A stretch of 62,592 nt of DNA, filler included, from Deltaproteobacteria bacterium (GTDB lineage: Bacteria > JAGRBM01 > JAHCIT01), in the NCBI GenBank assembly GCA_026129095.1. It is 3 parts of 3 records of this genome, joined end to end, with 100 filler letters (N's around TTAATTAATTAA, not from the genome) between each part and the next. Parts side by side here need not be neighbours in the genome. Positions count along the whole stretch, not along the records: positions 1 to 30,482 come from JAHCIT010000017.1; 2 more parts are not named here. The stretch is one strand, 5' to 3'. Positions within the stretch are counted from its first letter, which is position 1. Each line of letters begins with the position of its first letter. Below are positions 5,702 through 30,482 of the stretch, in pieces. A program made the position numbers and the translations under genes. Below the pieces are notes generated by a model that saw nothing but the letters and a program-made list of their open reading frames with translations, had not been told where the DNA came from and did not search any database.

Positions 5702-6436
5702 ATGCGCATCTGGCTCCACAACCTGTGGCTCGTCCCCGGCGGACTCCTGCTGCTTGCCGTGACGGCGGGGCTGGGGCCTGAGCATTTCAACGGAGTGATC
5801 CGGCACTATTTCCTTCGTGACATCGTGGAGCTTCCCCCACGGGTGCGGCTGGAACTGCACATTCTCTACTGGTTCGTGCTTCTGACGGGCACCGGCACCC
5901 TGCTGTCGTGGTTCATGTTTTCGCTGCGGAAAACCAGTGTGTGGGGATGGCTCACGGGAGGGGCCGGGTTTTCGCTGACGACGGGCCTCCTCATCTTGTG
6001 CGTGGCCGCCAACGGCCTGTTTCTGGCCGATCGCCTGATCCGGCAGACGGCAATGGAAATCGTCTGGGCCGGGAAGGATGTGGATCAGCGGCGGCAGCTC
6101 CGCTTCCTGGAGCTTGGCGACATCCATTCGCTGCGGCCTGAAACCATATTCGACCGGATACCCGAGATCCCGGACGCCTTCGCCATATTCCGGGCACCGC
6201 CAGAGGGCGAATCGGAACTGCTCATGCCGACCTATTACCTCAATATCTCCTACCATTTTTTCCCGACTCGTGTGTATTTCAGGCGCATCCCTGCCTGCGA
6301 GGAACGGGCAGAAGCAGCCGCCTGGGCCAGGTCCAGAGGGATCAGATACGCTGTCTGGGACTGCGGAACCCGCGGAACCCTGCCTCCGCTCACCGCGCTG
6401 GAAACAGGTATCGGCGAGCCGGGAGACGGCCGGTGA
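5702..6436 (+). CDS. Membrane protein of unknown function, paralog B
   Basis: Likely start ATG 5702 inside ORF 4973-6436; IWLHNLWL...GLGPEHF.G..RHYFL matches VWVRNLWL...GLGSVHF.G..RHFFL of 3775-4536; GTGA overlap with the next gene. Confidence 0.7.
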   Translation: MRIWLHNLWLVPGGLLLLAVTAGLGPEHFNGVIRHYFLRDIVELPPRVRLELHILYWFVLLTGTGTLLSWFMFSLRKTSVWGWLTGGAGFSLTTGLLILCVAANGLFLADRLIRQTAMEIVWAGKDVDQRRQLRFLELGDIHSLRPETIFDRIPEIPDAFAIFRAPPEGESELLMPTYYLNISYHFFPTRVYFRRIPACEERAEAAAWARSRGIRYAVWDCGTRGTLPPLTALETGIGEPGDGR

Positions 6437-7905: not shown

Positions 7906-8236
7906 ACCCCTCGTAGTAGTAAATCTGACCTAGCCCGAATTCTTTATCCGGAATGATGGGATGATCCTCAATCAGGCAAACATCGATCAGGTCATCCCGG
8001 CTACACGGATCATCAGAGGAGAACTCGCCCCCGTCCTCCGAACAGGATTTTTCGACCTTTTCCTCTTCAATACCAAAGTATCCCGACGCATTTGAATGTA
8101 TCAGAACCTCAATGCACATCTTTTCGTCAGGGTAGTCGCAGGAGACTTCCTTGAAATCGAATTTATCGCAGCCCGCAAGGGACAGCACAATCCCCAGTGC
8201 CCGAAGGCCGCCGGTCACGGTGAAACCCGGTTTCAT
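7844..8236 (-). CDS. Acidic Cys-rich lipoprotein; candidate immunity protein for the Rhs toxin
   Basis: ATG 8236 overlaps the Rhs stop (ATGA); signal peptide with lipobox LAG-C; 6 further Cys; D/E-rich. Confidence 0.75.
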   Translation of the reverse strand: MKPGFTVTGGLRALGIVLSLAGCDKFDFKEVSCDYPDEKMCIEVLIHSNASGYFGIEEEKVEKSCSEDGGEFSSDDPCSRDDLIDVCLIEDHPIIPDKEFGLGQIYYYEGFIDPEEHCAEYDGEYGVVWK

Positions 8237-17200: not shown

Positions 17201-20200
17201 AGCTCAACACCCCATCGTACATATCCCTTTCCGTACGAAAGAAGTTCGGGGACAACTCGCCCCTGATTCTCTAGTGGAGCACCAATACCGTAGTATGAAA
17301 TACTGGTTGTGAAGGTTACTTCAGGTTCCGAATACTCAATGCCTTCAATCACGGCGAAACCCTGGCCGCAGCAAGGAAACTGGAAATTCCCTGGGCGGTT
17401 ACCGTACAGGCGAACTACGACAGAGTCCTCGGTCAACGCGATTCCACGCCCATGCGCGGCCATATCCGGCACCCAGACAGCTTCGAACTCCAGCTCGCCC
17501 GTCTGGATGCCGCGCACGATGACAATGATATTGTCCCCTATGCTTGGGCTGGAAGGCACCCACAAATAGTCCGGCCCGCTGCCGGCGATCACGACCGTGT
17601 CATCGCTTGTCGCTATCGGTGCAAGCGCATCGTTTGGACCAAAGCCGACAGCTGGATGATCGGCATAGATGCTTCCGCCCGGAACCCCCCAATATGGATG
17701 AACCAGTTCCGGGATAACCACGTTTTCATATGTGATTTCACCATCACTGAGGCCTCGCATAACGACTATGGTATCGTCGTTGTTCGTTACGTGGTTTGGG
17801 ATTCCGTCTTCACCCCAGGTAAGTGCGACAGCCGTGAACTCATTGACAACCGTCCATTCGGTCCGAACGGGGTAGGGAGGACTGATCTCCACGACTTCGG
17901 GGATTGGCGTGTCCAGATAACGGACAAGGAACCGGTCGGGTGTTCCGCTGGGACAATGTGTCGGGCAGATAAACCTGGCAAGCATTGCAGAATCCGAAAC
18001 CCGAACCGGGCTGCTGCCGATAATTTCCGGGAAATGTCCGTTTTCTCCGGATGTTGTCAGCAGAGTGAGGCCCGAAAATCCTATTACGGCCAGTAGGTCG
18101 TCATTAAGTTTTACACTTGGGCTTGGCAGGTGATTGACCCCAGAGAATACAGGTACATCAACAGCAGTGTTCAGTCGCTGCATAGGGTCAGCGAGTACTT
18201 CGAATGTCCTAGAACCCCAAGAAACGGGGCCATAATTCAATTCCAAGGTGTAGTGACCGACCTTTAGCGGCTGCGTCCAGAAATTACTCTCGGCCACATT
18301 CCAAACGTCTCTGAAAGGAATTATCGGGATCGCACGCGAATGTCCGAAGCCATCTAGGCTGAGACTGGAAAAAACATACTGGCTATCAGCAGTTCTCTTC
18401 AGACTCGCATATTCGCCCACACCCAGATTGGCATCCCCATCAGGGGGATCGGTTTCAGCACAAAGCGCGTTTCCGTCCCACGCGACGGAGAATATCGGAA
18501 ATTCGACCGGGCCGGATGGCTCTGTTCCGGTTCCTGTCAACGGTATCTCGGTTATTGCTGCTTCGTTTACATACCCCAGCACCAGACTGGCCAATCGCTG
18601 ACCGGTTTCAGACGGATTGAAGACTATCTCAAAGCCGATATATTCACCCGGTCCGATATACGGTGGAAAATCCGGCGCGCCGGAAAAATCGGGTGTGCTA
18701 CCTAAGGCAAAATCCGAGGCGGCAGTTCCAAAGAAATTGGTTACGGCGGGGTTCAGATCAACTTCCAGTAATTGCTCTGTCATATTATGGCAGATCACAC
18801 CAGTTGAACTACTCCCAGAGTTTGCAGTTACAGCGCCGAAGTCGATAATTCCCGGAATGCATGTCAATCCGGAACCGGATTGCACGGCCACGACCGCCTG
18901 AGCTGAAACCGGCCCACTTTCGCCGTTGCAAGTGAACGTATATACCGTCGACACTGGCGGCGCGACCTGTACGTTTCCCGATGTATCGACAGGAATACTG
19001 TTAATCTCACAGGATGTCGCATTGACGGCAAGCCACGCGAGCATCGAAGCATCGCCGGAACCAATTACCGGCGGGGTCGCAGAAAAATGCACGATCTGAA
19101 CAGGATCGGATATATTTTCTCCGATTCCAGTCAACAGAATTTCCGTCGGCTCACTGCTCGTAACGTATTCGAAACTGATTACGGAACTGAGCGGACCGGT
19201 TTCCTGGGGCCTGAATATAATTCCAAAGGTTACATAGTCACCGGGATGGAATATTCCCGCAGAAATATCCTCTCCCGAGACGCCCGCCACGCTGATGTCG
19301 AAGTTTTCGCTGTCAGTAACTGCAAAAGAATTCATATCGACGGCAACATTGTCCAGCAGCTCATTCGTGCAGGTTATAAAGCTCGTGTCCGATTCAGCCC
19401 CGACCCCAACAGCGCCGAAATCGATCTGCTCAGGCATGCAAGTGAGCATCGCGTCCGCGGGCGGTTCGTCCCCTTCCAGAACCAGCACCAGCCGCGGCGG
19501 ATTTCCGCTTTCCTTCGAATCAAATTCGATCAGGCCGCCCTGACCCTCTTCGGTCTTGCGGACTAACCAACCGTAGTTTTCCTTCGTGCCAGCCAGAAAG
19601 GCGATGACATCCGCCGTCACATCCCAGGCGACCGTTCCTGTTTGCGCGTTCTGGATCAGTACCGTTCCGGTTGGTACTGTTTCCATGGGCCACAAACCGG
19701 GATTTCCCATCGACCACTCGGTTGCGCCCGAACAGTCTTTGGCAGTATTGGTGATATTCGTGTCAATGGCGCAGTTCCAGGTAGCGCCCGGACCATCGCC
19801 CCGGTCGCTGGGGGTTGTGCCAGCTACCTTTCCATTGCCTTCGGCCCAGTCCTGGAGCATCCGGTGGACGTCCACCGTGCGGCCAGGGCCCCAGTTGTTG
19901 CCGGTATTCAGAATATCGGCCTCCAGATAAGCAGCCAGCACAGTGCGGCCGGCGACAAACGAGACCAGATCCGGGTGTCCAAACCGGACCAGCACCCGGT
20001 TGTTTCCAGCCTGCTGAACCCGCAGGAGGGCCGCACCACCCTCGTTGGTATTGGGTGAGCCGTTATAGATAAACGTATCGGCCGCCGCCGTCAGCGTCAC
20101 CGTCACGGCGATGTCGAAGGCGGGCAGGCTGGCGCCCTGGTTTTCGCTGTCCGTCACCGTGATGACGATGTTGCGGTAAATGCCCGCATCGCCCGCCGAA

Positions 20201-21069
20201 GGCGTCCCGGAGAGCGCGCCCGTTTCCGGATCGAAATCCAGCCAGTGCGGCCTGTTCTGGACCGAAAACGTGAGGATGTCGCCCGGATCGGCATCGCTTG
20301 CCACGGGCGCGAAGAAATAGGCCGATCCCTCATTCACCCGGAACGGCGGGTTGCCGGCAATCACCGGCGGGAAGTTGCCGCCGGGAGGAGGTTCCACCAC
20401 CAGCACCAGAACCGGTTTGGAAGCGGTTTCCCGCGACGAGAAGGTTATCGATCCGCTCGCACCCTCGTCCGTCTTCCGGACGATCCAGCCGTTGTTGGGA
20501 GTCCCGAGGACAAACGCCTCCACGTCGGCCTTCACGTCGAACGAGACCGTGCCGCCCTGGCCATTCATGATCAGCTGCGTGGCCGTCGCCGCAGATTCCC
20601 ACGGCCGCTCGCCGCTGCCGCTCATGGACCATTCGGCTGCCCCCGTACAGTCCTTGGCCGAATTGGCGATGCTGGAATCGACAGCGCAGTTCCACGTGGC
20701 CCCGCTGCCCGTGCTCCCGTTGCCTTCGGCCCACGGCACGGTGACGCGGTGCAGATCGATGGTCCTCCCCGAAGCGCCCCAGTTGTTGCCATTGGCGGAG
20801 ATAGTCAGTTCCAGCGTGGCCGACAGCAGCGTGCCGCCGCCCACGGCGGCATCGACCGCCACCTGCGGGAACCGGACGAGCACACGATTGTTCCCGCTCG
20901 CCTGGATCTGGAGAGCGGCCGAACCGCCTTCGTTGGTGTTGGCCGCGCCACTTCGGACATACGTATCGGCTTCGGCTTCGATCGAAATCGTGACCGGTTC
21001 GGCCAGGGCCGCATTCGGGAAAACTCCGGTAATCAGCAGTCCTGCAAAAACAGGCAAAAGACGGCGCAT
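8233..21069 (-). CDS. Giant secreted Rhs/YD polymorphic toxin: 2 DNRLRE-like domains, putative Ig repeats, 2 ASH-like Ig domains, SpvB-like domain, FG-GAP repeats, Rhs core, HExxH C-terminal domain
   Basis: GGGGGAG RBS before ATG 21069; Sec signal MRRLLPVF...ALA; ADTYV...N.G...P.LVL (twice); P.W..FD..TG.L.G.P repeats; GAFTTSIPIEVP...PRLSLNYSS...GWVGVG; GDFNGDG repeats; YD repeats; HGDHLGS...RYYDP..GRFISADP...NNPLNRVDVDG. Confidence 0.9.
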   Translation of the reverse strand: MRRLLPVFAGLLITGVFPNAALAEPVTISIEAEADTYVRSGAANTNEGGSAALQIQASGNNRVLVRFPQVAVDAAVGGGTLLSATLELTISANGNNWGASGRTIDLHRVTVPWAEGNGSTGSGATWNCAVDSSIANSAKDCTGAAEWSMSGSGERPWESAATATQLIMNGQGGTVSFDVKADVEAFVLGTPNNGWIVRKTDEGASGSITFSSRETASKPVLVLVVEPPPGGNFPPVIAGNPPFRVNEGSAYFFAPVASDADPGDILTFSVQNRPHWLDFDPETGALSGTPSAGDAGIYRNIVITVTDSENQGASLPAFDIAVTVTLTAAADTFIYNGSPNTNEGGAALLRVQQAGNNRVLVRFGHPDLVSFVAGRTVLAAYLEADILNTGNNWGPGRTVDVHRMLQDWAEGNGKVAGTTPSDRGDGPGATWNCAIDTNITNTAKDCSGATEWSMGNPGLWPMETVPTGTVLIQNAQTGTVAWDVTADVIAFLAGTKENYGWLVRKTEEGQGGLIEFDSKESGNPPRLVLVLEGDEPPADAMLTCMPEQIDFGAVGVGAESDTSFITCTNELLDNVAVDMNSFAVTDSENFDISVAGVSGEDISAGIFHPGDYVTFGIIFRPQETGPLSSVISFEYVTSSEPTEILLTGIGENISDPVQIVHFSATPPVIGSGDASMLAWLAVNATSCEINSIPVDTSGNVQVAPPVSTVYTFTCNGESGPVSAQAVVAVQSGSGLTCIPGIIDFGAVTANSGSSSTGVICHNMTEQLLEVDLNPAVTNFFGTAASDFALGSTPDFSGAPDFPPYIGPGEYIGFEIVFNPSETGQRLASLVLGYVNEAAITEIPLTGTGTEPSGPVEFPIFSVAWDGNALCAETDPPDGDANLGVGEYASLKRTADSQYVFSSLSLDGFGHSRAIPIIPFRDVWNVAESNFWTQPLKVGHYTLELNYGPVSWGSRTFEVLADPMQRLNTAVDVPVFSGVNHLPSPSVKLNDDLLAVIGFSGLTLLTTSGENGHFPEIIGSSPVRVSDSAMLARFICPTHCPSGTPDRFLVRYLDTPIPEVVEISPPYPVRTEWTVVNEFTAVALTWGEDGIPNHVTNNDDTIVVMRGLSDGEITYENVVIPELVHPYWGVPGGSIYADHPAVGFGPNDALAPIATSDDTVVIAGSGPDYLWVPSSPSIGDNIIVIVRGIQTGELEFEAVWVPDMAAHGRGIALTEDSVVVRLYGNRPGNFQFPCCGQGFAVIEGIEYSEPEVTFTTSISYYGIGAPLENQGRVVPELLSYGKGYVRWGVELISVVSDDILMRANVRDMGGVAASFIDDSTFVSIDILHSQLPDYFHINPQQVLLTRNIWSVPETISVSLNDIPAGLLPSVPNAPSSIPRAVSDAVTLQNYLQYGNSLFTKIGNFAYTVISGSEYPPQHCNTASSHPAYLLSIKNLYSGQPSLEVAGYASQFPVNRVEVLGEHTSSEMAYYIGQNDIYWIAPSATHEIMQSAHPDVFAIQGQYYSYYPVDLGIWGEPIFEIVNKPSWAEFDFVTGELYGIPTNGDVGVYDGIIIVRSNSDTEVFRVGPFTIEVMNANDPPTIEGNPPDSASVGVIYDFTFSSDDPDLIHGDVLQFSATNLPLWLSLDPVTGRLLGTPQESDAGVWIDIHVYVSDRFGEFAVAGPFEIRFSSANSPPQISGVPPETAGWGVLYSFTPMASDPDVGDNGSLVFSIENPPYWTGFDPETGMLAGVPGYFETGVYENIVIIVRDPFGDYSRLPAFTISVEGENTPPAISGSPETAILFGETYFFTPDAWDPDIEFGDVLTFGIVNLPAWAAFDTATGSLYGVPGLDDVGEYAGIVINVEDIMGGFDELPEFSIEVTGTAPPAFANLPETSAIEGQYYEYVPVISNAPENYAFQITGLPDWAQFDQGDGKLSGTPGEDDSGVYADIVIELVDQSGVVAILGPFSIEVHDNEVDAGQGLGNIPVSDYIPKMPQVPHLGQVDPSTGAFTTSIPIEVPKYYDIEPRLSLNYSSNGVDGWVGVGFQLAGTSSIVRSSSTNGAPRYVSSDKFSLDGNELLPCSGFQDICASRPGATHVTKWDNYTKIQRDSVNDRWYVWDTRGTRMTYEKTVYSGNQVFRWDIVEVTDVFGNTVSYSYTSLGNREVYLQSIEYGPYRVVFYTASRSSESAKPSYATGSNLLEIGRYLNAVAVSSNEQNIRAYALDYEISGWTARYLLSNITQYGAGVVVAPDGTVSNPEETVQLQVFSVDWNKNSISMSSGTLGGWDSMPGAPAYNNQNRYVSGDFNGDGLTDIAITTNNWRGWRVYLSNGNGWKTEWWEDKNIESDSQGGYVCYQAICNNENRFIVGDFNGDGRSDILVVHSNSTKFRIFVSSPSTSNSSGYAFKYRTVSANLKRNGVLVPICDWSCADERVNILSGDFNGDGKTDIVAARGGVNWSSAFATTDETLNSHSWHIWYGKSSTTAVSFTRYRKLYTQNSDWRPCLDDCQPDDVRFIVTDMNGDGYSDILRFMKSTAFATNVYAYFGKDGEGFTHIDTERKYLCGEDCSATKLFAGDFNGDGKQDVYFGPLHWILYSNGYDFRIGFPKFTGDGRPCGDCGQSDLLLALDINGDNRADLIGTTANSTKVRYGFAKKSSIGETTFETKEYSHNVCQGDCNRENGAIQIGDFDGNGKQDVFTFLATGQPRVHLTGKTADRPDLVDAIVSITGTRTEVDYISSANWPGNKVPVGLLLGTVKSLRTAYRTNSASSTEDVLSEQAIVTEYSYSGLEWSQEERRPFGFTRFAQRNWEEIVEIVEKKPDKTVTKLTRKPLELQQEADMSRNLACIGRPVETRILDMSKPASERLLARSVTSYIPEAGPPYTCRSGETVAETYGPGGGLWIRRQEVLSYDSYGQPLVVVNHGDANASGDETVSVTEYAYNPVDYIVGTPRRQLVCAGISPELCSSTGSGRISEARYCYDGDTDSGDDPLCSEPPPEGRVTRKRQWDSNGDGPERWLTSDMRYDPVNGNPLASSLSYFGDEMPVFNPDTEYDESGLYPVASFNHLGHVSEQVFDPVMGVQLCGRNPNQVVIYSRYDSLGRLISSSAPEKYTGTLDIEACTKDDAWWDANWAVRKSYVLDSTSNYTVTRNRAAVTGPAASEIFETIEIRDGLGRNIQTKHRTGTGTHVVSGLVAYDALGRVRYQYDTFDEEGGSDTVWTGFTQASGDARIRKTEFLHDSVGRVSSVKFVGGGQAFVEYQLGETTVTDPKGNTRVAFSDIHGRNYRIDEFAVSGTRLTTLYDFDPVTGRLMRIGRDTDNNGYLGGADRVDAEFSYNSLGQTLHLTDINTGVTTYSYDAMGNVARKTDARGNEAVYSFDELGRLVLKCAKAGAGVDDPLGLTKSFGTSPVEATAQGACGAGEVEIASYTYDNPAANGIGALDTLADLSGTTAYSYDLQGRITGIVKRMDPDSQTNAWRTFTLSRSFDLLGRLQNIVYPDRENVCYGYDERSQLVGIVGYDDDGDGNPSDCGAAGVDTRTYLQGATYDPVFGSLLMMEFGNGTTTTREYHASTRRLKVLETLDSQAELLQKTAYAYDRTGNITAILDFRAPGNTQHFTYDGLSRLLTASGGYGNLAYSYDGVGNFQTFEGPPPVAYDTAGGVTHPDAMVSGPGGWSAAYDLNGNMTVRTPSSISPTHLYSWGYDNRLATASAIDSGPPEHLVSMVYDGHGARVIRYADGAPTYYFGNWFELRPAMAVKHIMGPGGVIASVSYNPASKPSLGGFMATVSLGDRLRERARRTWSAAANPSLGPAGAKARIQIASLAAALASVLWLLWLADPLWRFRRLVRALETAGERDLREAMEAARIRAAVRVERRRARGGYRWRWRQGVAAGLVLAIGFAAAACEEQRWGAGGRQMGAVAYSTGTAIAEGDQPIWLHGDHLGSVVAVTDASGAELSRMDYKPFGEVWSSSGTAPASDRTFTRKRQDAGLGLMNFENRYYDPLVGRFISADPRQLEPAPLQAMRMAEWDYQNGSANAGSMPEERLADWRGRTFAPQDLNRFSYVLNNPLNRVDVDGYGFWKWVKRFVLKVLSNLVSLVLQAIFRYILPFQLPNFGLSDALWDMIDRLAGNMFVIGADAATYASTQRKGGIGFHGYLVGAKTTMLGLSAGLAAIAVGAMQGKNVGVHAESVNGTGTIVFSGAGFVVGKASAQTIGHAMLLKVERNGYFKHKPYSFWLDHESLHLQQAGVLGEGYLASHITMGALAMMFGRELKDDQGNVLRDKWHDPKINFLEDHESNSPWKWGRWP

Positions 21070-21329
21070 GTTCCAGACTCCCCCACCGAAAGCGGTCCCC
21101 ACCGCTCCCAGCCTTCAGCTCAGCGGCGTTCTGCCGCAGAATGATGTGTGGTTACTGGTGCTTATATATCAAGAACATGCTGTCGGGTTCAATCGAAATT
21201 ATTTGGAAATATGTCATCCTGCTGAAATCACGGAGAGTTTCCGTCACGGGCAAATCGGGGTGTGCGCTTCGTCACCTTCCGCAAAATATTTCCCGGTCCA
21301 GAATATGTCTGTAAGGCGAGGATTTTCCC

Positions 21330-23027
21330 ATGGACGAATATCTGTGGCCGGCGCGGAATGTCGCCGAATACGCCTACTGCCCCCGGCTCTTCTACCTGAT
21401 GGAGGTCGAGGGCGTTTATCTGCCGAACGAGGAGACGGAAGCTGGCAAAGCCGTTCACAAGCGGGTGGACCGTCCGAGTTCCGATACGGAAGACGAAGTA
21501 AGGCCCAAAAGCGTTCGCAGTCTTACGCTCACCAGTGGCCGGTTGAAACTGACAGCCACGCTCGATCTGGCCGAAATCGACGGCAACCACGCCATACCGG
21601 TCGAATACCGCAAGGGGCGTCCGAAGAAGACCGTCATGGCCCCGCCGCCGGACGACCCTGGCGAATCTGATGAACCGCCCCTTGCCTCCACGGAACCCTG
21701 GCCCACCGACCGCGTCCAGATTGGCCTTCAGGTCATCCTGCTGGAAGAGGCCGGTTATGCCGTCCCCGAAGCTTTTCTCTACTACGCCGCCGAGAAACTG
21801 AAGCTGGCCGTGCCGGTTGACGAGGCGCTCAAAAAAGATGCGCTTGCCACCCTGGAGGCAGCCCAGGTCTGCGCAAGGGGGAGCCGCCCGCTTCCGCTTG
21901 TGAACGACCGGCGCTGCGAGGGCTGCTCGCTCCAGCCGCTTTGCCTGCCGGACGAGGTTAATTACGAACGGGCCGGGGATCCCGGCTCCATGCCCTCTCC
22001 CCGCAAGCTCTGGCCGCCCCGAAGCGACGGCATTCATCTGGTGGCCCAGCAGAAAGGAACCCGCATCGGCGTAAGAGGAACCTCCGTGCGAATCACCGAC
22101 GACCGGGGCTCTGTGGTCAAGGAAATCCCGCTCGTGAACATGGAAAGCCTCTCGGTACTGGGTTCCGTCCAGATATCCACCCAGGCTTTGCAGGTATTCG
22201 CGGACCGGGAAATCCCGGTGGCCTATCTGTCGCCTGCCGGGCGCCTGGTTGCGCTCGTCGAGCCCGCCACCAGCACCAGCGGCCATATCCGGCGCGCCCA
22301 GTTCAAGGCGCTGGATGCCGAAACCGTCAAACTCGAACTGGCCCGGGCGCTGATCACGGCCAAAATCCTGAACCAGCGCAAACTCCTTCAACGCAATCAT
22401 GCGGCACTGCCGGACGGCGCCCTGGACAACCTCACGCGGGAAGCCGAGGCCGCCGCCCGCGCCGAATCCACCGACAGCCTTCGTGGGCACGAGGGGCGAG
22501 CGGCGGCCATCTATTTCGGCCTTTTCAGCGGCATGATCCGGCCGGAAGCCGGCAGGGAGTTCCAGGCGAATGGCCGCCAGCGCCGCCCGCCCCCCGACCC
22601 TGTCAACTGCGCCCTGTCGCTGGCCTATTCGATGCTCACCCATGAGGCGACGGCCGCTCTCCGGACGGCCAGCCTCGAAACCTCCATCGGCGCTTTCCAC
22701 GTTTCACGGCCGGGCCGCCCGGCGCTCTCGCTCGACCTCATGGAACCGTTCCGTCCGCTCATCGCCGACTCCTGCGTGATCGCAGGATTCAACAGGGGTG
22801 AGTTCCGCGATGGCCATTTCGCCAGAACCGCCGCCGGATGCATGTTCACCGATCACGGCCGGAGGGCCTTTTTTAACACTTACGGCCGCCGGATGGACGA
22901 CGAGGTCACCCACCCGGAGTTCGGCTACCGGCTCTCCTACCGGCGGATGATCGTCCTGCACGCACGGATGATCGCCGCGTGGTTCATGGGCGAGGTGCCG
23001 AGGCTATCATTCCTGACAACCCGGTGA
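21330..23027 (+). CDS. cas1: CRISPR-associated Cas4-Cas1 fusion
   Basis: Cas4 part: EYAYCPR plus CEGCSLQPLC (4 Cys). Cas1 part: GHEGRAA.IYF, RPPPDPVN..LS..Y, GAFH, LSLDLMEPFRPLIAD. Confidence 0.95.
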   Translation: MDEYLWPARNVAEYAYCPRLFYLMEVEGVYLPNEETEAGKAVHKRVDRPSSDTEDEVRPKSVRSLTLTSGRLKLTATLDLAEIDGNHAIPVEYRKGRPKKTVMAPPPDDPGESDEPPLASTEPWPTDRVQIGLQVILLEEAGYAVPEAFLYYAAEKLKLAVPVDEALKKDALATLEAAQVCARGSRPLPLVNDRRCEGCSLQPLCLPDEVNYERAGDPGSMPSPRKLWPPRSDGIHLVAQQKGTRIGVRGTSVRITDDRGSVVKEIPLVNMESLSVLGSVQISTQALQVFADREIPVAYLSPAGRLVALVEPATSTSGHIRRAQFKALDAETVKLELARALITAKILNQRKLLQRNHAALPDGALDNLTREAEAAARAESTDSLRGHEGRAAAIYFGLFSGMIRPEAGREFQANGRQRRPPPDPVNCALSLAYSMLTHEATAALRTASLETSIGAFHVSRPGRPALSLDLMEPFRPLIADSCVIAGFNRGEFRDGHFARTAAGCMFTDHGRRAFFNTYGRRMDDEVTHPEFGYRLSYRRMIVLHARMIAAWFMGEVPRLSFLTTR

Positions 23028-23043
23028 TGAGGAGGGGAAAACC

Positions 23044-23334
23044 GTGCGCCGCTGCTATCTCGTCTGCTACGACATCCGCGATCCCAAACGCCTGCGCCGG
23101 GTTCACAAGGCCATGAAGGGTTATGGCGAACCGTGGCAGTTTTCGGTCTTCTTCTGCGTCCTGAAGAACATCGACCGCGTCCGCATGCAGACCGATCTCG
23201 AAACGGAGATGAACCAGCGGGACGACCAGATTCTGGTCATCGACATGGGCGGCGATGAAGAAGCCGCCCGGAACGCGGCCGTCGTCCTCGGCCAGTCCAT
23301 GAAACCGGCCGACAGCGGAATGGTGGTGGTGTGA
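23044..23334 (+). CDS. cas2: CRISPR-associated Cas2
   Basis: YLVCYDIRDPKRLRRV...GEPWQFSVF; GAGGAGG RBS; follows cas1. Confidence 0.95.
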   Translation: MRRCYLVCYDIRDPKRLRRVHKAMKGYGEPWQFSVFFCVLKNIDRVRMQTDLETEMNQRDDQILVIDMGGDEEAARNAAVVLGQSMKPADSGMVVV

Positions 23335-23354
23335 GGCAGCAGTTCGCCCGCGAA

Positions 23355-23714
23355 TCAGATCAGTTGCAGGAAATTGGCCGGCGCGAAAATCCCGTGCCGG
23401 CGAAGCGCCTCCGGCGACTCGCGTTCGCACAGCGCCCTCACGCTCTTCAGACGCTCGGCGGCAGCAAGCGCGAAGAACGGCGTCCCGAGCGAGCCTTCAC
23501 GCTTCGTCCATTCAGGCGAGGCAACCCGGCTGCGTTCGGCAAGCAGTTCCGCCAGCGCAGCAGCGGCGATCCGCACCCGGCGGTCGGTTGACTCCGGAGG
23601 CGCAAAAGACGCCGGCAGGTCGCCGAGCCGCGCCCATTCGAGAGCAAGCTCCCTCAGCCGCAGGGCGTCCCGTGCGATCAGCGCTTCCGCCATCTGTTCC
23701 AGCAAGGCTTTCAC
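23355..23714 (-). CDS. Small helical partner protein of the nucleotidyltransferase (putative antitoxin)
   Basis: 119 aa; GTGA overlap with the upstream NTase; AALAELLA...PEW...PFF...SPEALRRHGIF pattern, recalled from partners of DUF6036-type NTases. Confidence 0.65.
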   Translation of the reverse strand: MKALLEQMAEALIARDALRLRELALEWARLGDLPASFAPPESTDRRVRIAAAALAELLAERSRVASPEWTKREGSLGTPFFALAAAERLKSVRALCERESPEALRRHGIFAPANFLQLI

Positions 23715-24238
23715 AACGTCTCCCAGAGATCGTCCAGCGCGTATTTTGCCTTCAATTCGGTGCCGGGTTCAAGGTACGGAAGCATGGCAGCCCAGGCGGC
23801 CTCGCGGCCCATCCCGGTCTCCTTGAGCCTGCGGACCAGCGTTTCGGCATCCGAGATATCCAGATCGTCCCGCCACGCCGACAGCTTCATGGCTGCCAGC
23901 TGGGCGACCGACGGAATCGCGACCTCGATCCCCGGAGCCGAAAAGATGACCGTTTCCTGAACCGGTGGCCGGACATACGCCTTCGCCGCATCGTTCAGCC
24001 AGTCATCGGGCAACCCCAGTTTCGATCCCACCCCGGTGGCAAGCCGTCGCACCTGCGATGCATCGGCCGGTTCGAGGAAAACCGAATCGATGTCGTAGGT
24101 GCTGTCACGGCTGCCGAATCCCAGCGCCATCGCGGCTCCCCCGACGACCAGCAGACGTATCCGCGTGCCGTCCGCGAGAGCGGCCGCGCCCAGCTCACGA
24201 AAGGCGTTTTCGATGGCGGTTTTGGAGAGACGGGACAC
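23711..24238 (-). CDS. Nucleotidyltransferase, DUF6036/AbiEii/MenT-like (putative toxin)
   Basis: GGAGG RBS; LVVGGAAM...RDSTYDID (GG...DxD); WLND; MKLSAWRDDLDISDA (K..A.R..D..D). Confidence 0.8.
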   Translation of the reverse strand: MSRLSKTAIENAFRELGAAALADGTRIRLLVVGGAAMALGFGSRDSTYDIDSVFLEPADASQVRRLATGVGSKLGLPDDWLNDAAKAYVRPPVQETVIFSAPGIEVAIPSVAQLAAMKLSAWRDDLDISDAETLVRRLKETGMGREAAWAAMLPYLEPGTELKAKYALDDLWETL

Positions 24239-24330
24239 GTCGGCAGCCTCCGGAAGGTCCGTCAGTAAAGCCTACCCGGTTTTTCACCGGACCGGGCATT
24301 CGTCCCGTTGTATTCTTCGGAAAAACAACA

Positions 24331-24347
24331 GTGACACGTCTTGTCAC
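24331..24347. promoter_or_regulatory. Palindromic operator GTGACA-N5-TGTCAC in the divergent NTase/cas12b promoter region
   Basis: Perfect 6-bp arms in the 207-bp intergenic region. Confidence 0.5.
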
Positions 24348-24445
24348 CGGACCATGCCAGTATGGACTGGAAGTGGAAATGGCCGTCCATGGAAGTTAGG
24401 ATTTTGCAAACACGAAGGAACTTCCATCCGGGAGAGGGTAAACCG

Positions 24446-27400
24446 ATGCCTCAAAACCAAACCATTACGCCAACTCAACGCGCATACACTCTGCGGCTCC
24501 GCGGAGCGACAAAGGACGACAATTCCTGGCGCGACGCCATCTGGAAAACCCACGTCGCCGTCAACAAGGGTGCGAAGGTCTTCGGGGACTGGCTGCTGAC
24601 GTTACGGGGCGGCCTGGATCACAATCTGGCCTCTGACTCTTTCGGCAAAAAAACACCTTCTGAGACCGAAATCCGGAACCGGAAAATACTGCTCGCATTG
24701 TCGTGGCTGTCGGTGGAATCCAGGGAAGGAGCACCGGCAGATTACATTATCCCTGCGACAGACACGGAAGACACGCTAAAAGAGATACTTCATGGGCGCG
24801 GGGTTATTGGGAAAGACGCGGACGAATGGGTCGCCATGGCTGCTCCGTCATTAACAGCCGCGATTCGTGACGATGCTGTATGGGTGAATCGCAGCAAGGC
24901 GTTCGATTCATTCGCAAAAAAAATGCCTTCCGGTTTCGATCGAACATCTGCGTCCGCCGTCATCTTTGGCTTCTTCGGAAAGCCCGAAGCGTATTTTTTC
25001 ATCGAAGCTGCCAATACTTCGGATGGTGACGAACCGGGCGCGGAAGAAAAGCCTCCGACTGGTAAGGACGTAGACGAACCGGCCGACTTCTCGAATACGG
25101 CTCGCAGCTGGCTGAGTGCCAACTGGGGTTCAGGTGAAAAGGCCGACACCGAACATGTCGTCGGAACCCTGCAGCGAATTGGGAAAACCGATCTAACCAG
25201 TTTTGACGGCGATGAACCAGAGGCCTTGCTCAGGTTCCTCGTTACGTGCTGCAACGGACAGATCGACCCCACCACGGATAAGGTGACCCTGCTGAAGACT
25301 ATCGGGAAGCTGATCGGATGGAAGGGTGCACCCTCGATGGGGCGAAAGGCGCTCGAGAAAGTCGCTGAATCCAGACAGGTAACACAGGAACTCATCGACA
25401 ACCTTCAGGACAAGTTCCTGTCGGAGGCCACCGACAAGAGCGAAGACATCGGGAAAGTTATTCCGGAGTGGATTCGTCAACTACGGCCGCAAATCGAAGG
25501 CGCGATCGGGATAACGTTCCGTGCTCCTACTTCCGATGACAGGGAACGGGATTTGATCGGCGAGTATTCGGTCCTGCTCGACCACGCAGCCCGCCGCGTT
25601 TCCATTGCACATTCCTGGATCAAGTGGGCCGAAGCCGAGCGGCAAAGGTTTGAAGATGACGCGATGAAGAAAAATAATATACCGTCGGCCGTCAGGGATT
25701 GGCTCGACGACTTCTGTCAGAAACGTTCTCAGACGTCGGGGGCTGAAAATCAATACCTTATCCGGAAGCGTGCGCTTGAAGGCTGGAAAGAGATTGTCGC
25801 CGCGTGGAGTACCCAATCCTGCAAGACGAGGGACGACCGCGTTCAGCGTGCACGGGAAAAACAGGATGAACTGGACAAATTCGGAGATATCAACCTGTTC
25901 GAACGGCTTGCCGATGACGACGCGCGTGTCGTCTGGGAATCAGGACCGGATCACCTGATCAATTATTCCGCCGCTCAGGTTGCCGGACATAACCAGCAAC
26001 GCTTCAAGGTGCCTGCCTACCGGCATCCCGAACCACTCAAGCATCCCGTATTCTGCGATTTCGGCAATTCACGCTGGTCGATCTCCTTCGATATTCATGA
26101 AGCCGTTAAGAAGGCCACGAAAAGTGCGGCAAAACCTGCAAAGAAAAAGGCTTCCAGCAACGCCGAGGTCACCGGGGAAATCCCGTCTACCGACGACCGC
26201 ACTCTTTTGTTGGGCCTATGGAATGGAAACTCCGTTGGCGACAGACAGCTTCGTTTCGCCTCCAAACGTTTACAATGGGATATTACGTCCCCATTGCCTA
26301 ACGCTGGCGAAAAAACCGAAGTCGTTCGTGCCGACCGGTTCGGACGGGCTGCGACCGGGGCGGCCATTACAGAATCTGTTTTGGCGAAAAGCATTTTCGA
26401 ACAAGATTACTGGAACGGCCGCCTCCAGGCCCCTCGCGCCCAGCTAGACCGACTCGCCCATTACCTAGAGAGAAAAGGTTTAGACTGGACTGAAGAAAGC
26501 CGGTGGGACGGGAAAGCCCGAGCTTTGCGCGACCGGATCAACTGGCTGATTACGTTCTCAGCCAAGCTGACGCCTCAAAAGGGACCATGGCTTGAGTATG
26601 CCGATGCGAATGGTCTTAAGCTCTATTCAAAACCATCCGACGATGGTGCCTATCCTTTCAGCCGGCCAGGGCAGGACAAACAGGAAAAACGCGGTTCCAT
26701 GGCCCGTCTCGTGCTTTGCCGCCTTCCTGACCTACGCGTGTTGTCTGTAGACCTCGGTCACCGGTTCGGGGCCGTCTGTGCGGTCTGGCACACGCTGTCG
26801 GGTGAGCAATTCCAGAGAGAATGCAAAGCCGCCAGGAACGAAGGTGCGGAAGTCACGGTCAGGGACCTGTACTGCCACATCAAATTTCCCAAGAAAAAAT
26901 CGAATAACCCCAGCAAGAAACAGCAGAAAGAAGGGAAGGACGATTTTCATCCAATCCGCATATACCGCCGGATCGGCGGCGACCTGCTGCCTGACGGTTC
27001 ACCTCATCCCGCGCCCTGGGCGCGGCTGGAGCGCCAGTTCACCATCAAGCTCCAGGGGGAGGATCGGAAAACTCGGCGGGCAACTGCAGATGAAATGAAC
27101 CGTGTCCGGAATTTCGAGGCGGAAATTGGCCTTGTCAGACGCGCCGATGAAAAACTGCCCATCCGTGTCGATGAACTCATTTCCCAGACCGTCAGGAATG
27201 GGCGACTGGCATTACAGCGTCACGGCCGGCGCGCTAAGATTGCGTGGGGCTTCCTGACAGACGAACAGCATCTCCCCGGCGGTCGCTTCGCACCTCTCAC
27301 GGCCGACGCACGCAAAGAGCTTTACGAAAACACGCTGCGCGACTGGGCTGATCTGGCTACAGACTCGCGATGGCGGGACACAGCTTCCCGCGAACTTTGG

Positions 27401-28822
27401 GAAATTCATGTTCAGATACATCTGAAAGATCCCCAGGTGGAAGAAACGCGCCAAGGCCGCGAAGACCGGCTTGCCTCGATGAAAGATGGGATCGCTTCGG
27501 TAGCCCAAAAGCTGGTCACCGATGCGAGTCTACGCAGTAAACTCCATCAGGTTTGGGCGACCCGCTGGCATACCGATAATAAAAACTGGAAAGAGCGACT
27601 TCGCTGGCTGCATGACTGGATTTTGCCACGAGGGATTCGTAAGGAACGGAAAGATAAATTGAAGATGGTGCGGGGAATGGGCGGATTATCAGTCGAACGC
27701 ATCAACTCCATTAAAGCGCTATACCAGATTCAAAAGGCCTATCGCACTCGCCCCGAGCCGGGTGATCCGAGAAAAAACGTCCCTCAAAAGGGAGACAATT
27801 CTCTCAATAAGTTCGGCCAATCCATTCTCGACACCTTGGAAGAACTGCGCACCCAGCGCGTGAAGCAGCTTGCCAGCCGGATTGTCGAGGCCGCACTCGG
27901 AATCGGTATTGAGCCGAAGATCAAAGGTCCCAAGGATGTCCGCCGGCCGCGTGAGCGGATCAAGGATTCGCGCTTTGTTCCCTGCCATGCGGTTGTGATC
28001 GAAAACCTCCAGAACTACCGGCCGGATGAACTCCAGACCCGGCGGGAAAACCGGATGCTGATGAGCTGGGCGTCTGCGAAAGTGCGCAAGGCGCTTCAGG
28101 ATCACTGTTATCTGTATGGCCTTCACCTCCGGGAGGTTTCCCCGAACTACACGTCTCGTCAGGATTCGCGAACGGGAGCACCTGGCGTGAGGTGCACAGA
28201 CGTATCTGTTCACGATTTTCTTACGTCACCTCTTTGGCGGAAAGCGGTCAGCAGGGCAAAGGAGAATATCGGAAAGGGAAACACCGGAAGCGAACTCGAC
28301 CGCTATCTCGAGGGCCTTGATAACAGTCTCCAGAAGGAATGGGGATCAAAAAGCCGCGAGGAACGAAACCAAGCCAGACCAGTCCGTATCCCCCGCAAAG
28401 GCGGGGACCTGTTCGTTTCAGCGGACAAGGACTCGCCCGCCGCAAAGGGCCTCCAGGCCGATCTGAACGCCGCCGCCAATATCGGTCTCAGGGCACTCCT
28501 GGACCCCGACTGGCCGGGAGCCTGGTGGTATGTGCCGTGCGATCCGAAAACGAATATCCCGGTGAAAGAGAAGGTCCTGGGATCGGTTGCATTCGCTGAC
28601 AGCAAGCTTCCGCTGGTTCCTGTCCAAGAGGAATCGGAGTCTGCGAAAAGCAAAAGGGGTAGAACCAGGGGCGCGAAGGAAAAGACCGTCATTAACTGGT
28701 GGCGGGACCTGTCGGCAGAACCGGTTGGCCCCGGAAACGGCTGGAAAAACTACGGTGAGTATCAGAATCGTACTCAGTTCCGGGTCGTCCAGAATCTCCG
28801 GACTCACTCCAAGGATAATTGA
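24446..28822 (+). CDS. cas12b: Type V-B effector Cas12b (C2c1), long clade, 1,458 aa
   Basis: GGAGAGGG RBS before ATG 24446; N-terminus TQRAYTLRL...WKTHVAVNKGAKVFGDWLLTLRGGLDH, recalled from Desulfatirhabdium-type C2c1; RuvC-I RVLSVDLG (D at 26750), RuvC-II VVIENL (E at 28001), RuvC-III QADLNAAANI (D at 28460); cas4/1, cas2, tracrRNA and array adjacent. Confidence 0.9.
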   Translation: MPQNQTITPTQRAYTLRLRGATKDDNSWRDAIWKTHVAVNKGAKVFGDWLLTLRGGLDHNLASDSFGKKTPSETEIRNRKILLALSWLSVESREGAPADYIIPATDTEDTLKEILHGRGVIGKDADEWVAMAAPSLTAAIRDDAVWVNRSKAFDSFAKKMPSGFDRTSASAVIFGFFGKPEAYFFIEAANTSDGDEPGAEEKPPTGKDVDEPADFSNTARSWLSANWGSGEKADTEHVVGTLQRIGKTDLTSFDGDEPEALLRFLVTCCNGQIDPTTDKVTLLKTIGKLIGWKGAPSMGRKALEKVAESRQVTQELIDNLQDKFLSEATDKSEDIGKVIPEWIRQLRPQIEGAIGITFRAPTSDDRERDLIGEYSVLLDHAARRVSIAHSWIKWAEAERQRFEDDAMKKNNIPSAVRDWLDDFCQKRSQTSGAENQYLIRKRALEGWKEIVAAWSTQSCKTRDDRVQRAREKQDELDKFGDINLFERLADDDARVVWESGPDHLINYSAAQVAGHNQQRFKVPAYRHPEPLKHPVFCDFGNSRWSISFDIHEAVKKATKSAAKPAKKKASSNAEVTGEIPSTDDRTLLLGLWNGNSVGDRQLRFASKRLQWDITSPLPNAGEKTEVVRADRFGRAATGAAITESVLAKSIFEQDYWNGRLQAPRAQLDRLAHYLERKGLDWTEESRWDGKARALRDRINWLITFSAKLTPQKGPWLEYADANGLKLYSKPSDDGAYPFSRPGQDKQEKRGSMARLVLCRLPDLRVLSVDLGHRFGAVCAVWHTLSGEQFQRECKAARNEGAEVTVRDLYCHIKFPKKKSNNPSKKQQKEGKDDFHPIRIYRRIGGDLLPDGSPHPAPWARLERQFTIKLQGEDRKTRRATADEMNRVRNFEAEIGLVRRADEKLPIRVDELISQTVRNGRLALQRHGRRAKIAWGFLTDEQHLPGGRFAPLTADARKELYENTLRDWADLATDSRWRDTASRELWEIHVQIHLKDPQVEETRQGREDRLASMKDGIASVAQKLVTDASLRSKLHQVWATRWHTDNKNWKERLRWLHDWILPRGIRKERKDKLKMVRGMGGLSVERINSIKALYQIQKAYRTRPEPGDPRKNVPQKGDNSLNKFGQSILDTLEELRTQRVKQLASRIVEAALGIGIEPKIKGPKDVRRPRERIKDSRFVPCHAVVIENLQNYRPDELQTRRENRMLMSWASAKVRKALQDHCYLYGLHLREVSPNYTSRQDSRTGAPGVRCTDVSVHDFLTSPLWRKAVSRAKENIGKGNTGSELDRYLEGLDNSLQKEWGSKSREERNQARPVRIPRKGGDLFVSADKDSPAAKGLQADLNAAANIGLRALLDPDWPGAWWYVPCDPKTNIPVKEKVLGSVAFADSKLPLVPVQEESESAKSKRGRTRGAKEKTVINWWRDLSAEPVGPGNGWKNYGEYQNRTQFRVVQNLRTHSKDN

Positions 28823-28853: not shown

Positions 28854-28950
28854 GCTCCTATAGGGAGCCTCGTTTCCACAGAATGTGTCTCCCCCTTCGA
28901 TGGGTTTAGCACTGTGGGGTTTATCAAGTCCGCGTCACTCGTTTGACGTG
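28854..28950 (+). ncRNA. Cas12b tracrRNA
   Basis: 5' hairpin GCUCC-UAUAG-GGAGC; stem UUCCACAG/CUGUGGGG enclosing GUGUC (28885-89, pairs with repeat end GACAC); anti-repeat 28919-36 pairs with repeat nt 13-30 at 16/18; 3' hairpin CGCGUCA/UGACGUG; exact 3' end uncertain. Confidence 0.85.
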
Positions 28951-29156: not shown

Positions 29157-30482
29157 GCCGCCGGAGCCGACGCGGACCTGATCAACTGACACGAGTTCGA
29201 AGTGCGGAAGATCGCGGAACTTCTCGCCGCCGGAGCCGACGCGGACCTGATCAACTGACACAGTTTGTGGGCGTTCCGGCTCAGCGAAAATGGATGCCGC
29301 CGGAGCCGACGCGGACCTGATCAACTGACACTCGATATCCGGCTAGTGTGTCCAATGTGTCTCCGCCGCCGGAGCCGACGCGGACCTGATCAACTGACAC
29401 GCCGTGAGCATGGCGGACGGCGTCCAGAGCGCGTTCGCCGCCGGAGCCGACGCGGACCTGATCAACTGACACTAGCGGAGATCGCCTGCGGCCCATGCGG
29501 CCCTGACGGCCGCCGGAGCCGACGCGGACCTGATCAACTGACACCCTCCAGTTTTTCATCAACCGCCTTGATGGCGCTGGCCGCCGGAGCCGACGCGGAC
29601 CTGATCAACTGACACTATATTCCCTTGTCACCTAGTTTCCCGGCCCTGCTCATGCCGCCGGAGCCGACGCGGACCTGATCAACTGACACCCCCGGAACCA
29701 CAGCGATCCCGGTCGGGCTCACCGGCCGCCGGAGCCGACGCGGACCTGATCAACTGACACGGTGTGCGGCGCCCGCGTGAGCCGAGCCCAGCAGCGCCGC
29801 CGGAGCCGACGCGGACCTGATCAACTGACACCATGTCCAGGCTGCGGATGGCGGGGATCGGGACTGGGCCGCCGGAGCCGACGCGGACCTGATCAACTGA
29901 CACAACTGGAATGGAGGGGAGGGGCCAACCCTCTCCCCTGCCGCCGGAGCCGACGCGGACCTGATCAACTGACACGGCTCGCAGTCCGGGGACGTGACGC
30001 GCCTCAACCGCCGCCGGAGCCGACGCGGACCTGATCAACTGACACTTTACACCGGCCACTGCCGGAACGTGATAAGGAGCCGCCGGAGCCGACGCGGACC
30101 TGATCAACTGACACGATGGGGGCCCGCCGATGTGGGCGGGCTCACGGTGCCGCCGGAGCCGACGCGGACCTGATCAACTGACACCTTGATCTTGCGTTCG
30201 ATCTCATCGCCTTCGTTGCGCCGCCGGAGCCGACGCGGACCTGATCAACTGACACCCGGCCTTCTGGGGCGGGACCACCGGGTCGAAATGCGCCGCCGGA
30301 GCCGACGCGGACCTGATCAACTGACACGCCTTGCCGTAGGAATCCCGCAGGATTCTAGCGGCCGCCGGAGCCGACGCGGACCTGATCAACTGACACCGTT
30401 TCCGGGGCCGCTCCCCGGAACCGGCTCCGAGCCGCCGGAGCCGACGCGGACCTGATCAACTGACACTGACTCCTGGTCTGCG
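29157..30482 (+). CRISPR. CRISPR array: 19 identical 36-nt repeats GCCGCCGGAGCCGACGCGGACCTGATCAACTGACAC, 18 complete spacers (33-38 nt), truncated by the contig end
   Basis: Repeats start at 29157, 29226, 29296, 29365, 29437, 29509, 29580, 29654, 29725, 29796, 29868, 29940, 30010, 30079, 30149, 30220, 30292, 30361, 30431; the 3' CAC end and tracrRNA pairing indicate + orientation. Confidence 0.98.

Follow-up and report, generated by a model that had tools for sequence, protein, structure and literature searches.

A conserved nucleotidyltransferase gene pair nested between cas2 and cas12b of a type V-B CRISPR locus, and its likeness to toxin-antitoxin modules

Layout of the cas2-cas12b interval

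We examined a pair of small genes nested in the type V-B CRISPR-Cas locus of a Deltaproteobacteria bacterium (GenBank assembly GCA_026129095.1). The whole stretch of DNA analysed, 62,592 nucleotides (nt) long and made of three joined parts of this genome, is referred to as the window. The type V-B locus is complete and comprises, all on the plus strand, a cas4/cas1 fusion (21330..23027; NF049935 at 4.1e-184, Pfam Cas1 at 4.6e-80 and Cas4 at 7.6e-14), cas2 (23044..23334; PF09827 at 4.8e-16, TIGR01573 at 6e-11), cas12b (24446..28822, encoding 1458 amino acids (aa) from an ATG at 24446; NF033949 at 8.8e-256) and a CRISPR array with a 36-nt repeat, delimited with Tandem Repeats Finder and followed by a tRNA gene (29157..30470). 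The pair lies on the minus strand between cas2 and cas12b and is present once within the window. Its first gene encodes a nucleotidyltransferase (NTase; 23711..24238, 175 aa, GTG start, open reading frame (ORF) read from 24238 to 23711) and its second gene encodes a protein that we call the partner (23355..23714, 119 aa, GTG start, ORF read from 23714 to 23355). The two genes form a module that is very probably autonomous and not specific to V-B loci. Taken as a whole, our preferred reading, to which we give an even chance, is that a toxin-antitoxin (TA) module came to lie here by accident, with the NTase as a toxin of the MenT/AbiEii type and the partner as its antitoxin.

A preliminary description of this DNA, made from the sequence alone, had placed two intact, translationally coupled minus-strand genes in the space between cas2 and cas12b, and its coordinates are exact. 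The NTase stop and the partner start overlap by 4 nt (GTGA). At one end of the pair, the partner and cas2 converge across a 20-nt gap (23335..23354, between the cas2 stop at 23332-23334 and the partner stop at 23355-23357); at the other end, the NTase and cas12b genes diverge from a 207-nt spacer (24239..24445, between the NTase start at 24238 and the cas12b ATG at 24446). Both ORFs are real genes and not chance frames, because the NTase has 1054 homologues and the partner 410 clusters of relatives in the protein libraries described below.

The spacer has a GC content of 53.6%. It holds an imperfect 20-nt direct repeat (24274-24293 and 24334-24353). On the minus strand at 24349-24320, some 90 nt ahead of the NTase gene, a hairpin (GTGACA...TGTCAC) precedes a run of T and was flagged as terminator-like. 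No sigma-70-like site was returned by a scan of positions 22900-24700, a result that says little for an uncultured organism such as this sludge bacterium, and a scan of the 20-nt gap between cas2 and the partner returned no terminator-like site. Of the divergent promoter region first proposed to be shared with cas12b, the divergent starts 207 nt apart are borne out, while the promoter itself is unconfirmed. Since the insertion splits what is likely a single cas4/1-cas2-cas12b unit in relatives, cas12b must here use a promoter within the 207-nt spacer.

Public sequencing runs provide some further coverage of the interval. One RNA-library contig of 195 nt matches 24154-24348 without differences; it is strandless and is not proof of transcription. 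This contig ends at 24348, that is, at the edge of the hairpin. Other RNA-library contigs contain parts of cas2 and cas12b, which is compatible with transcription and likewise not proof of it. Contigs from the samples of two other studies include pieces of at least 99% identity across cas4/1, the NTase gene and cas12b. Over the parts that have cover, a joint that skips the pair was found in none of the two DNA and two RNA-library runs, each in the form of contigs; among the pieces listed, none runs across the junction of cas2 with the partner or of the NTase with cas12b. As for traces of an insertion, no transposase ORF was found flanking the 1.1-kb interval and no terminal direct or inverted repeats bracket it, all repeat arms lying inside coding sequence or in the spacer; this agrees with the first inspection of the sequence.

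The GC content of the pair (64-67.5%) is close to that of host genes (62.5-64.5%, as seen in cas4/1 with 64.5%, an epimerase gene with 64% and gltB with 62.5%). The cas12b gene differs from the adaptation genes, with a GC content of 55.8% and a GC content at third codon positions of 61.7%, compared with 64.5% and 77.6% for cas4/1. Because cas12b lies below the adaptation genes, the pair and the host genes in this respect, the effector and the adaptation module may differ in history. Between cas12b and the array is a candidate anti-repeat of a trans-activating CRISPR RNA (28919..28937, plus strand), which agrees at 16 of 18 positions with the reverse complement of repeat positions 6-24. Directly upstream of cas4/1 lies a giant minus-strand ORF of 4289 aa (8233..21102) with He_PIG, CBM96, FG-GAP, SpvB, TcdB middle/N-terminal and RHS-repeat domains; judged by these domain matches, its product is a predicted Rhs/Tc-type polymorphic toxin-like giant protein.

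A paired family and its predicted complex

Relatives of the pair were sought in a set of genomes with one genome per species, in which at least 520 loci hold a relative of the NTase, and the best 80 of these (L001-L080) were examined. All 80 hold both genes, with the partner directly downstream of the NTase on the same strand. Counted by frames, a partner ORF comes next downstream on the same strand in 81 of 83 NTase ORF matches; the two exceptions are L018, where both genes share a single open frame, and L057, where a short fragment accompanies a complete copy. The overlap of the two genes measures 14 nt in 65 of the 81 pairs and between 4 and 22 nt in 78 of them. At the protein level, 1054 homologues of the NTase were found at E ≤ 1e-3 in a library of 5.8 billion proteins, and a hidden Markov model (HMM) search of 1.84 billion representatives gave 410 partner clusters at 50% identity, 232 of them at E ≤ 1e-10 and 39 at E ≤ 1e-30 (a word-limited search returned 8 partners only).

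The constancy of the pair is not shared by its surroundings. No third gene accompanies the pair consistently: within 4 kb, the neighbour cluster seen most often is present in 5 of the 80 loci. From 146 nearest-neighbour ORFs, the 121 of at most 600 aa were scanned against Pfam and found to be mostly housekeeping genes (LepA, PurA/adenylosuccinate synthetase, GatB), with no family seen in more than 4 of the 121. According to record titles, the loci (at least 520) belong to Chloroflexota, Acidobacteriota, Planctomycetota, Cyanobacteriota/Melainabacteria, Deinococcales and others. Occurrence within such groups is sparse: the partner was found in 9 of 401 Planctomycetota genomes, four of these with strong matches, and in 2 of 5 genomes of the small phylum to which the closest GTDB relative belongs. 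Copy number across five genomes was 1, 1, 1, 2 and 2. Possible viral carriage amounts to a single relative among 2.9 million IMG/VR contigs, located at 5824-6871 of a 205,227-bp contig (L096), where an NTase of 44% identity is again followed by the partner. One Anaerolineae locus (L054, 4485-4589) has a 20-mer that occurs three times, at intervals of about 50 nt, immediately 3' of the partner; this cluster is too small for a CRISPR array.

Two small, co-oriented and overlapping genes that are always paired, in variable context and with a patchy distribution, are the usual signature of a selfish or accessory module of the TA type, and the pair shows these general traits of TA modules throughout.

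The NTase is a Pol-beta-type nucleotidyltransferase of the DUF6036/DUF2204 group and is structurally MenT1-like. Its match to Pfam DUF6036 (PF19502; E 6e-4, 20.1 bits) lies below the gathering cut-off of 23.6 bits, its match to the AbiEii profile of PADLOC is weaker (E 0.035, 11.7 bits), and PF08843 (AbiEii/DUF1814) in Pfam gives no match at E ≤ 0.1. Among 69 family members, 63 match DUF6036, 38 match DUF2204 (PF09970) and 22 match AbiEii (E ≤ 0.01; best AbiEii match 2.3e-5). With 63 of 69 relatives matching DUF6036 at E ≤ 0.01 and the window protein itself under the cut-off, the latter is a divergent relative. Seventeen residues are invariant over the 69 sequences (G33, G34, R44, T47, D49, W80, K86, K118, L119, A121, W122, R123, D124, D127, D130, W149 and A167), and D51 is kept in at least 90% of them. 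The Pol-beta core, that is hG[GS] followed by DxD, is present as G33 G34, D49 and D51, in the window protein as in its relatives; the GG...DxD and K..R..D..D motifs recognised at first sight are conserved among the 69 members. A Ser or Thr two residues before the first catalytic Asp, the place of the auto-phosphorylation site in MenT1 (T39) and MenT3 (S78) (PMC11375011), is also present, as T47-Y-D49, with T47 invariant in 69 of 69 sequences.

An AlphaFold2 (AF2) model built on the family alignment has a predicted local distance difference test score (pLDDT) of 95, and the NTase fold is confirmed by this model together with its structural matches. In the VIA structural comparison, the best match is MenT1 (8an4_A; Z 9.3, 154 residues aligned, root-mean-square deviation 4.5, 20% identity), followed by 5uvd, a fungal NTase-like protein (Z 8.9), the C-terminal domain of an AbiEi antitoxin (Z 8.8) and ANT(2'') (Z 8.3). 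MenT4 (Z 7.6), MenT3/TglT (Z 7.3), LnuA (Z 7.0) and 4ok0, JHP933-like from H. pylori (Z 6.2), rank lower. By sequence, MenT1 is not among the matches listed at E ≤ 10 in a profile search of PDB sequences; the PDB-sequence matches of the NTase are armadillo-repeat proteins, which we judged spurious.

The partner is predicted to be all-helical (AF2 pLDDT 88). It has no match in Pfam, NCBIfam or PADLOC, no match among PDB sequences at E ≤ 10, and falls only into unnamed clusters in the protein atlas; searches with its model gave a best E of 0.49 in Foldseek against PDB and a best Z of 4.3 in VIA. The partner is accordingly a protein without known family or fold, and these null searches do not make its fold new. 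As described earlier, it lacks the RxxxxH motif of HEPN proteins: Rx4-6H is absent from the window partner, the string occurs in 14 of 80 relatives at no conserved position, and no HEPN protein is among the 50 fold-search matches listed. Over 68 partner sequences, no Tyr, Ser or Thr is invariant or near-invariant.

Partner-like domains also occur outside the pair. In P0311, a full tyrosine integrase of 519 aa, such a domain takes up residues 409-514 at the C-terminal end (E 1.6e-27); another is C-terminal in an integrase fragment (P0363), and two more follow other N-terminal extensions (P0372 and P0353); in P0350, the C-terminus of an NTase runs into the partner in one frame. When IMG/VR viral contigs were scanned with P0311, only integrase without the extra domain was found. 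Fusions to an integrase with no NTase in the same protein are more readily explained by a binding or regulatory module than by a toxin. The C-terminal two-thirds of the partner are weakly matched (E from 1e-6 to 1e-8) in five Planctomycetota genomes, within frames of 191-195 aa at G094:C22:25715-25987, G106:C245:6892-7113, G250:C4:4920-5129 and G284:C35:5290-5532, and in an 834-aa frame at G257:C107:10048-10239; these may represent a distant branch of the partner with a different architecture.

Modelled together, the NTase and the partner reach a complex score of 0.81 (runs of 0.80, 0.81 and 0.81), compared with 0.24 for the best of three controls, with a contact agreement between runs of at least 88% and a partner pLDDT of at least 88. 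In calibration, 58 of 80 solved complexes attained this mark, as did 2 of 110 mismatched pairs (own alignments, so that these counts are rough). The predicted interface of the NTase includes residue 48, between T47 and D49, residues 121-126 and 128-129, with the invariant A121, W122, R123 and D124, and the C-terminal helix; that of the partner includes the invariant R21 and L116 and the near-invariant L18, A111 and P112. Direct binding of the two proteins is thus supported by the models, and contacts at residue 48 and at 121-129 fit a partner seated on the catalytic cleft.

The MenT toxins offer a precedent for such an arrangement. MenT1 has a conserved T39, D41xD43, K137 and D152, and T39 is auto-phosphorylated upon binding of MenA1 (PMC11375011). 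MenA1 blocks MenT1 and repositions the T39 loop (PMC10435456, PMC11375011), and the MenA antitoxins are described as belonging to unrelated families (PMC10435456). By analogy, the NTase would be the effector and would halt translation, adding nucleotides to the 3' ends of tRNAs, as MenT toxins do. The product of the downstream gene would be a new kind of protein antitoxin, bound over the putative motif-IV helix and the T47-x-D49 loop, and would either block the active site or trigger an inactivating auto-phosphorylation of T47, as MenA1 does with MenT1. We give this assignment of toxin to the NTase and antitoxin to the partner an even chance at most.

Several observations weigh against this assignment. 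At the sequence level, the NTase of the window reaches no Pfam cut-off, be it that of DUF6036 or that of AbiEii. The top structural Z values (9.3-8.3) are moderate and nearly tied with those of the non-toxin NTases 5uvd and ANT(2'') and of an AbiEi antitoxin domain. The active sites of MenT proteins are described as electropositive (PMC11375011), whereas the NTase here is acidic, with an isoelectric point (pI) of 4.76 (4.3-5.6 in the family, median 4.8); the partner, with a pI of 9.17 here and a family median of 7.8, is neutral to basic, and an acidic NTase with a basic partner is the opposite of the common pattern of acidic antitoxin and basic toxin. In AbiE and MenAT, the antitoxin gene lies upstream (PMC10435456), the reverse of the order found here. 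The most conserved polar residues of the partner (E56, R61 and R105), as well as W69 and C96, lie outside the predicted interface, and the partner may therefore have an activity of its own. In the regions preceding the NTase at 77 loci, palindromes are no more prominent than in shuffled sequence (the best arm averages 5.5 and 5.2, respectively), so that an autoregulatory operator is not evident. Finally, NTase-first order with the NTase as antitoxin is the arrangement of the MNT-HEPN systems. The reversed order, the isoelectric points, the conserved residues away from the interface and the matches to small-molecule NTases led us to keep two other accounts of what the pair does.

The first is that the pair is a two-subunit NTase serving ordinary physiology and no TA system at all, with a catalytic subunit and a helical subunit for specificity or regulation, acting on a small molecule, for instance an antibiotic or a metabolite, or on a macromolecule of the cell. 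ANT(2''), LnuA and 5uvd match the fold with strength similar to that of the toxins; the immediate neighbours are mostly housekeeping genes and not genes of defence or mobility; and the single relative in the viral contigs points the same way. The two proteins can also be continuous, as in the read-through of P0350 and in the shared frame of L018, and the predicted seat of the partner beside the active site is where a substrate-binding subunit would lie. Such an enzyme sits poorly with the patchy occurrence of the pair (9 of 401 and 2 of 5 genomes) and its copy number of 1 to 2, and the want of positional conservation and of a third gene is a mark of selfish or accessory modules. A strict overlap and pairing in 80 of 80 loci are moreover typical of TA operons, and the T-x-D-x-D phospho-acceptor pattern is that of MenT toxins. 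On balance we find a two-subunit enzyme unlikely, while keeping it in view.

The second account reverses the polarity, as in MntA/HepT: the NTase would be the antitoxin, acting by nucleotidylylation or by binding, and the basic helical partner would be a toxin of new fold. Gene order and overlap are those of MNT-HEPN, the acidic NTase and the neutral to basic partner have the charges expected of antitoxin and toxin, an NTase active site as strictly conserved as this one is what an enzymatic type VII antitoxin needs, and E56, R61, R105, W69 and C96 could form an active site in the partner. This polarity is made doubtful by the partner itself, which has no Rx4-6H in the window and no conserved one among its relatives, no HEPN protein among its 50 listed fold matches (weak evidence by itself, with a best Z of 4.3), and no invariant Tyr, Ser or Thr as acceptor for AMPylation. 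Its occurrence on tyrosine integrases without an NTase would be odd for a toxin, and the best structural neighbours of the NTase are the MenT toxins, not minimal MNTs. We consider a toxic partner held in check by the NTase to be quite improbable.

Relation of the pair to type V-B CRISPR loci

The preliminary description had further proposed that the pair is a possibly undescribed accessory of type V-B systems, acting as an addiction module or as an abortive-infection backup, and had named co-occurrence with cas12b as a check. We looked at this association from both sides. At the 80 pair loci, searching some 10 kb around the pair revealed neither homologues of the Cas12b, Cas4/1 and Cas2 proteins of the window (phmmer, E ≤ 0.01) nor a CRISPR-like array; the flanks searched add up to 1.03 Mb, with at least 5 kb on both sides in 32 loci and on at least one side in 61. 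Five pair-bearing genomes searched in full (G001-G005) contain no Cas12b, and the same search found Cas12b in four other genomes. Conversely, we found no copy of the pair in the 13 related V-B loci examined, of which nine are metagenomic and four from Planctomycetota. The HMMs of the pair give no match even at E ≤ 10 in the loci of the Cas12b relatives of 33-46% identity (L081-L089), and the partner is absent from the four Cas12b-bearing genomes among the 401 of Planctomycetota.

Sequence divergence leads to the same conclusion. The closest relatives of the partner reach 89% identity and, on a contig of 319,752 bp, 83%, and that of the NTase has 84%, compared with 47% for the best relative of the window Cas12b in the 5.8-billion-protein library; a further related pair (P0129/P0006) stands at 64-70%. 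None of the 120 Cas12b matches listed is on a contig as long as those of the closest pair relatives (319,752 bp and 28,973 bp), and the nearest relatives of the pair thus seem to come without a comparably close Cas12b. Placement by chance would be expected to yield roughly one cas-adjacent copy in at least 521 loci, an estimate that follows from the small share of genomes taken up by CRISPR-cas and is uncomputed. The locus counts apply to the best 80 of at least 520 loci, many of them on short contigs, and the pair may have a position effect on this particular locus; both points tell against full independence. We nevertheless hold with high confidence that the module is autonomous and not V-B-specific. 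The computational part of what, by the preliminary description, would refute the accessory role is thus observed, the pair being absent from the related V-B loci examined and scattered among unrelated, mostly housekeeping genes.

Comparison of the V-B loci also gives an idea of the state before the pair. The order cas4/1-cas2-cas12b(-array) of the window is found in 5 of the 13 loci (L081, L083, L086, L089 and L091). Between cas2 and cas12b, the two closest of these, L081 and L086, have about 60 bp and about 55 bp, and L089 has about 210 bp, as against 1111 bp in the window; L083 has about 600 bp with no convincing ORF, and in L091 the frames adjoin. It would therefore seem that a two-gene module, widespread and self-contained, was inserted or recombined between cas2 and cas12b in this lineage, by chance, splitting a cas4/1-cas2-cas12b operon that is contiguous in relatives. 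In L089, a 125-aa PD-(D/E)XK protein (8916-9293, plus strand; PF13366 PDDEXK_3, 7e-37) lies between cas4/1 and cas2. It would seem that small foreign inserts can be accommodated between the genes of this V-B clade.

A functional accessory role, with the pair guarding against loss of the cas genes or standing in when Cas12b is lost or inhibited, might be suspected from its place within the cas operon, with cas2 20 nt away on one side and the divergent cas12b at 207 nt on the other. Both genes are intact and keep all family-invariant residues, and the same DNA, with pieces of the NTase gene, recurs in contigs of the two other studies' samples. TA modules can stabilise the DNA in which they sit, so that an incidental safeguarding effect on flanking genes is possible. 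Furthermore, it is established that CRISPR loci can be guarded by CreTA (PMC10097628, PMC9458426, PMC12737573). CreTA needs an ectopic repeat or a guide resembling CRISPR RNA (crRNA); no such element was found in or beside the pair, where the best ungapped match to the repeat or its complement covers 19-21 of 36 positions, and the only good anti-repeat is the one at 28919-28937, downstream of cas12b. With no cas genes or arrays at 80 pair loci, no pair at 13 V-B loci, pair-bearing genomes free of Cas12b, pair relatives at 83-89% identity against at most 47% for Cas12b, and a single adjacency that chance may explain, an accessory role is unsupported and very unlikely.

A long shot is that the insertion was retained because it helps the locus, as a lineage-specific protein counterpart of CreTA safeguarding: through the 207-nt region shared with cas12b, expression of the pair would be coupled to cas transcription, and loss or silencing of the locus would free a MenT-like toxin. 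As a separate matter, the family would then be a new MenT-like TA class, with a partner of new fold that is also found fused to integrases.

For CRISPR biology, the result is thus a negative one: the pair adds no new V-B accessory, and a single nested locus can mislead. The insertion also shows that foreign genes can be tolerated between cas2 and cas12b in this V-B clade, and the expression of cas12b may be affected.

Comparison with known systems

Literature on the protein families and on the combination seen here is scarce. DUF6036 and DUF2204, the families of most relatives (63 and 38 of 69), come with no described function or partner; a full-text literature search gave nothing on DUF6036 and nothing relevant on DUF2204. 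In the library searched, no publication joins Cas12b, toxin-antitoxin and nucleotidyltransferase, and the main text of a census of CRISPR-linked genes (bioRxiv 10.1101/270033), taken apart from its supplementary tables, names no nucleotidyltransferase or toxin.

CreTA resembles the present case as a TA-type element nested in a CRISPR-cas locus (PMC12737573). It differs in being RNA-based, in requiring an ectopic repeat-like guide together with a Cas effector for repression, and in recurring with its subtype, whereas the window pair consists of two proteins, has no ectopic repeat nearby and does not recur with V-B loci.

The MNT-HEPN system (MntA/HepT, type VII) shares with the pair an NTase encoded first, a small helical product of an overlapping second gene and a contact, here predicted, at the active-site region. 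The partner differs from HepT in having neither Rx4-6H nor a conserved Tyr acceptor, and the NTase is larger than minimal MNTs and MenT-like.

AbiE (AbiEi/AbiEii) and the DUF1814/PF08843 toxins, which include MenT3/TglT and MenT4, have in common with the NTase the Pol-beta core and a C-terminal motif of the K...R...D..D type, and their folds match with Z of 7.3-7.6. At about 280-290 aa, these toxins are some 100 aa longer than the NTase of the window. The pair has no AbiEi (COG5340, winged-helix) upstream, where only the 207-nt spacer and the divergent cas12b are found, and its gene order is reversed. Because the NTase falls short of both the AbiEii and the DUF6036 cut-offs and has no upstream antitoxin, it is best described as a MenT1-like relative and not as a member of those families. 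Of the TA-like NTase module first proposed, the likeness to AbiEii/MenT is therefore upheld (MenT1 at Z 9.3; 22 of 69 relatives matching AbiEii), and formal family membership is not, owing to the Pfam cut-offs and the gene order.

The closest likeness is to MenAT1 of Mycobacterium tuberculosis (MenA1/MenT1, Rv0078B/Rv0078A). MenT1 is a small stand-alone NTase of about 195 aa and the best structural match, and T47, D49, D51, K118 and D130 of the NTase show the pattern of its T39, D41, D43, K137 and D152 (PMC11375011). As candidates for the C-terminal motif IV of DUF1814, K118, R123, D124, D127 and D130 resemble K137, R146, D149 and D152 of MenT1 (PMC11375011), at a different spacing. MenA1, too, is described as small, helical, without kinase or DNA-binding motifs, and bound to the toxin at a conserved cavity (PMC11375011, PMC10435456). 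The differences are that MenA1 has 68 aa and is encoded upstream (PMC10435456), while the partner here has 119 aa, is unrelated and is encoded downstream, and that the NTase here is acidic.

If the pair is a TA system, it would extend the MenT/AbiEii group with a new type of antitoxin, and as a compact pair it would bear on how general antitoxin-induced auto-phosphorylation is in such NTases. Compared with the systems above, the module is an undescribed pairing, in which a minimal MenT1-like NTase is joined to a partner without known family or fold, in the order opposite to that of AbiE and MenAT.

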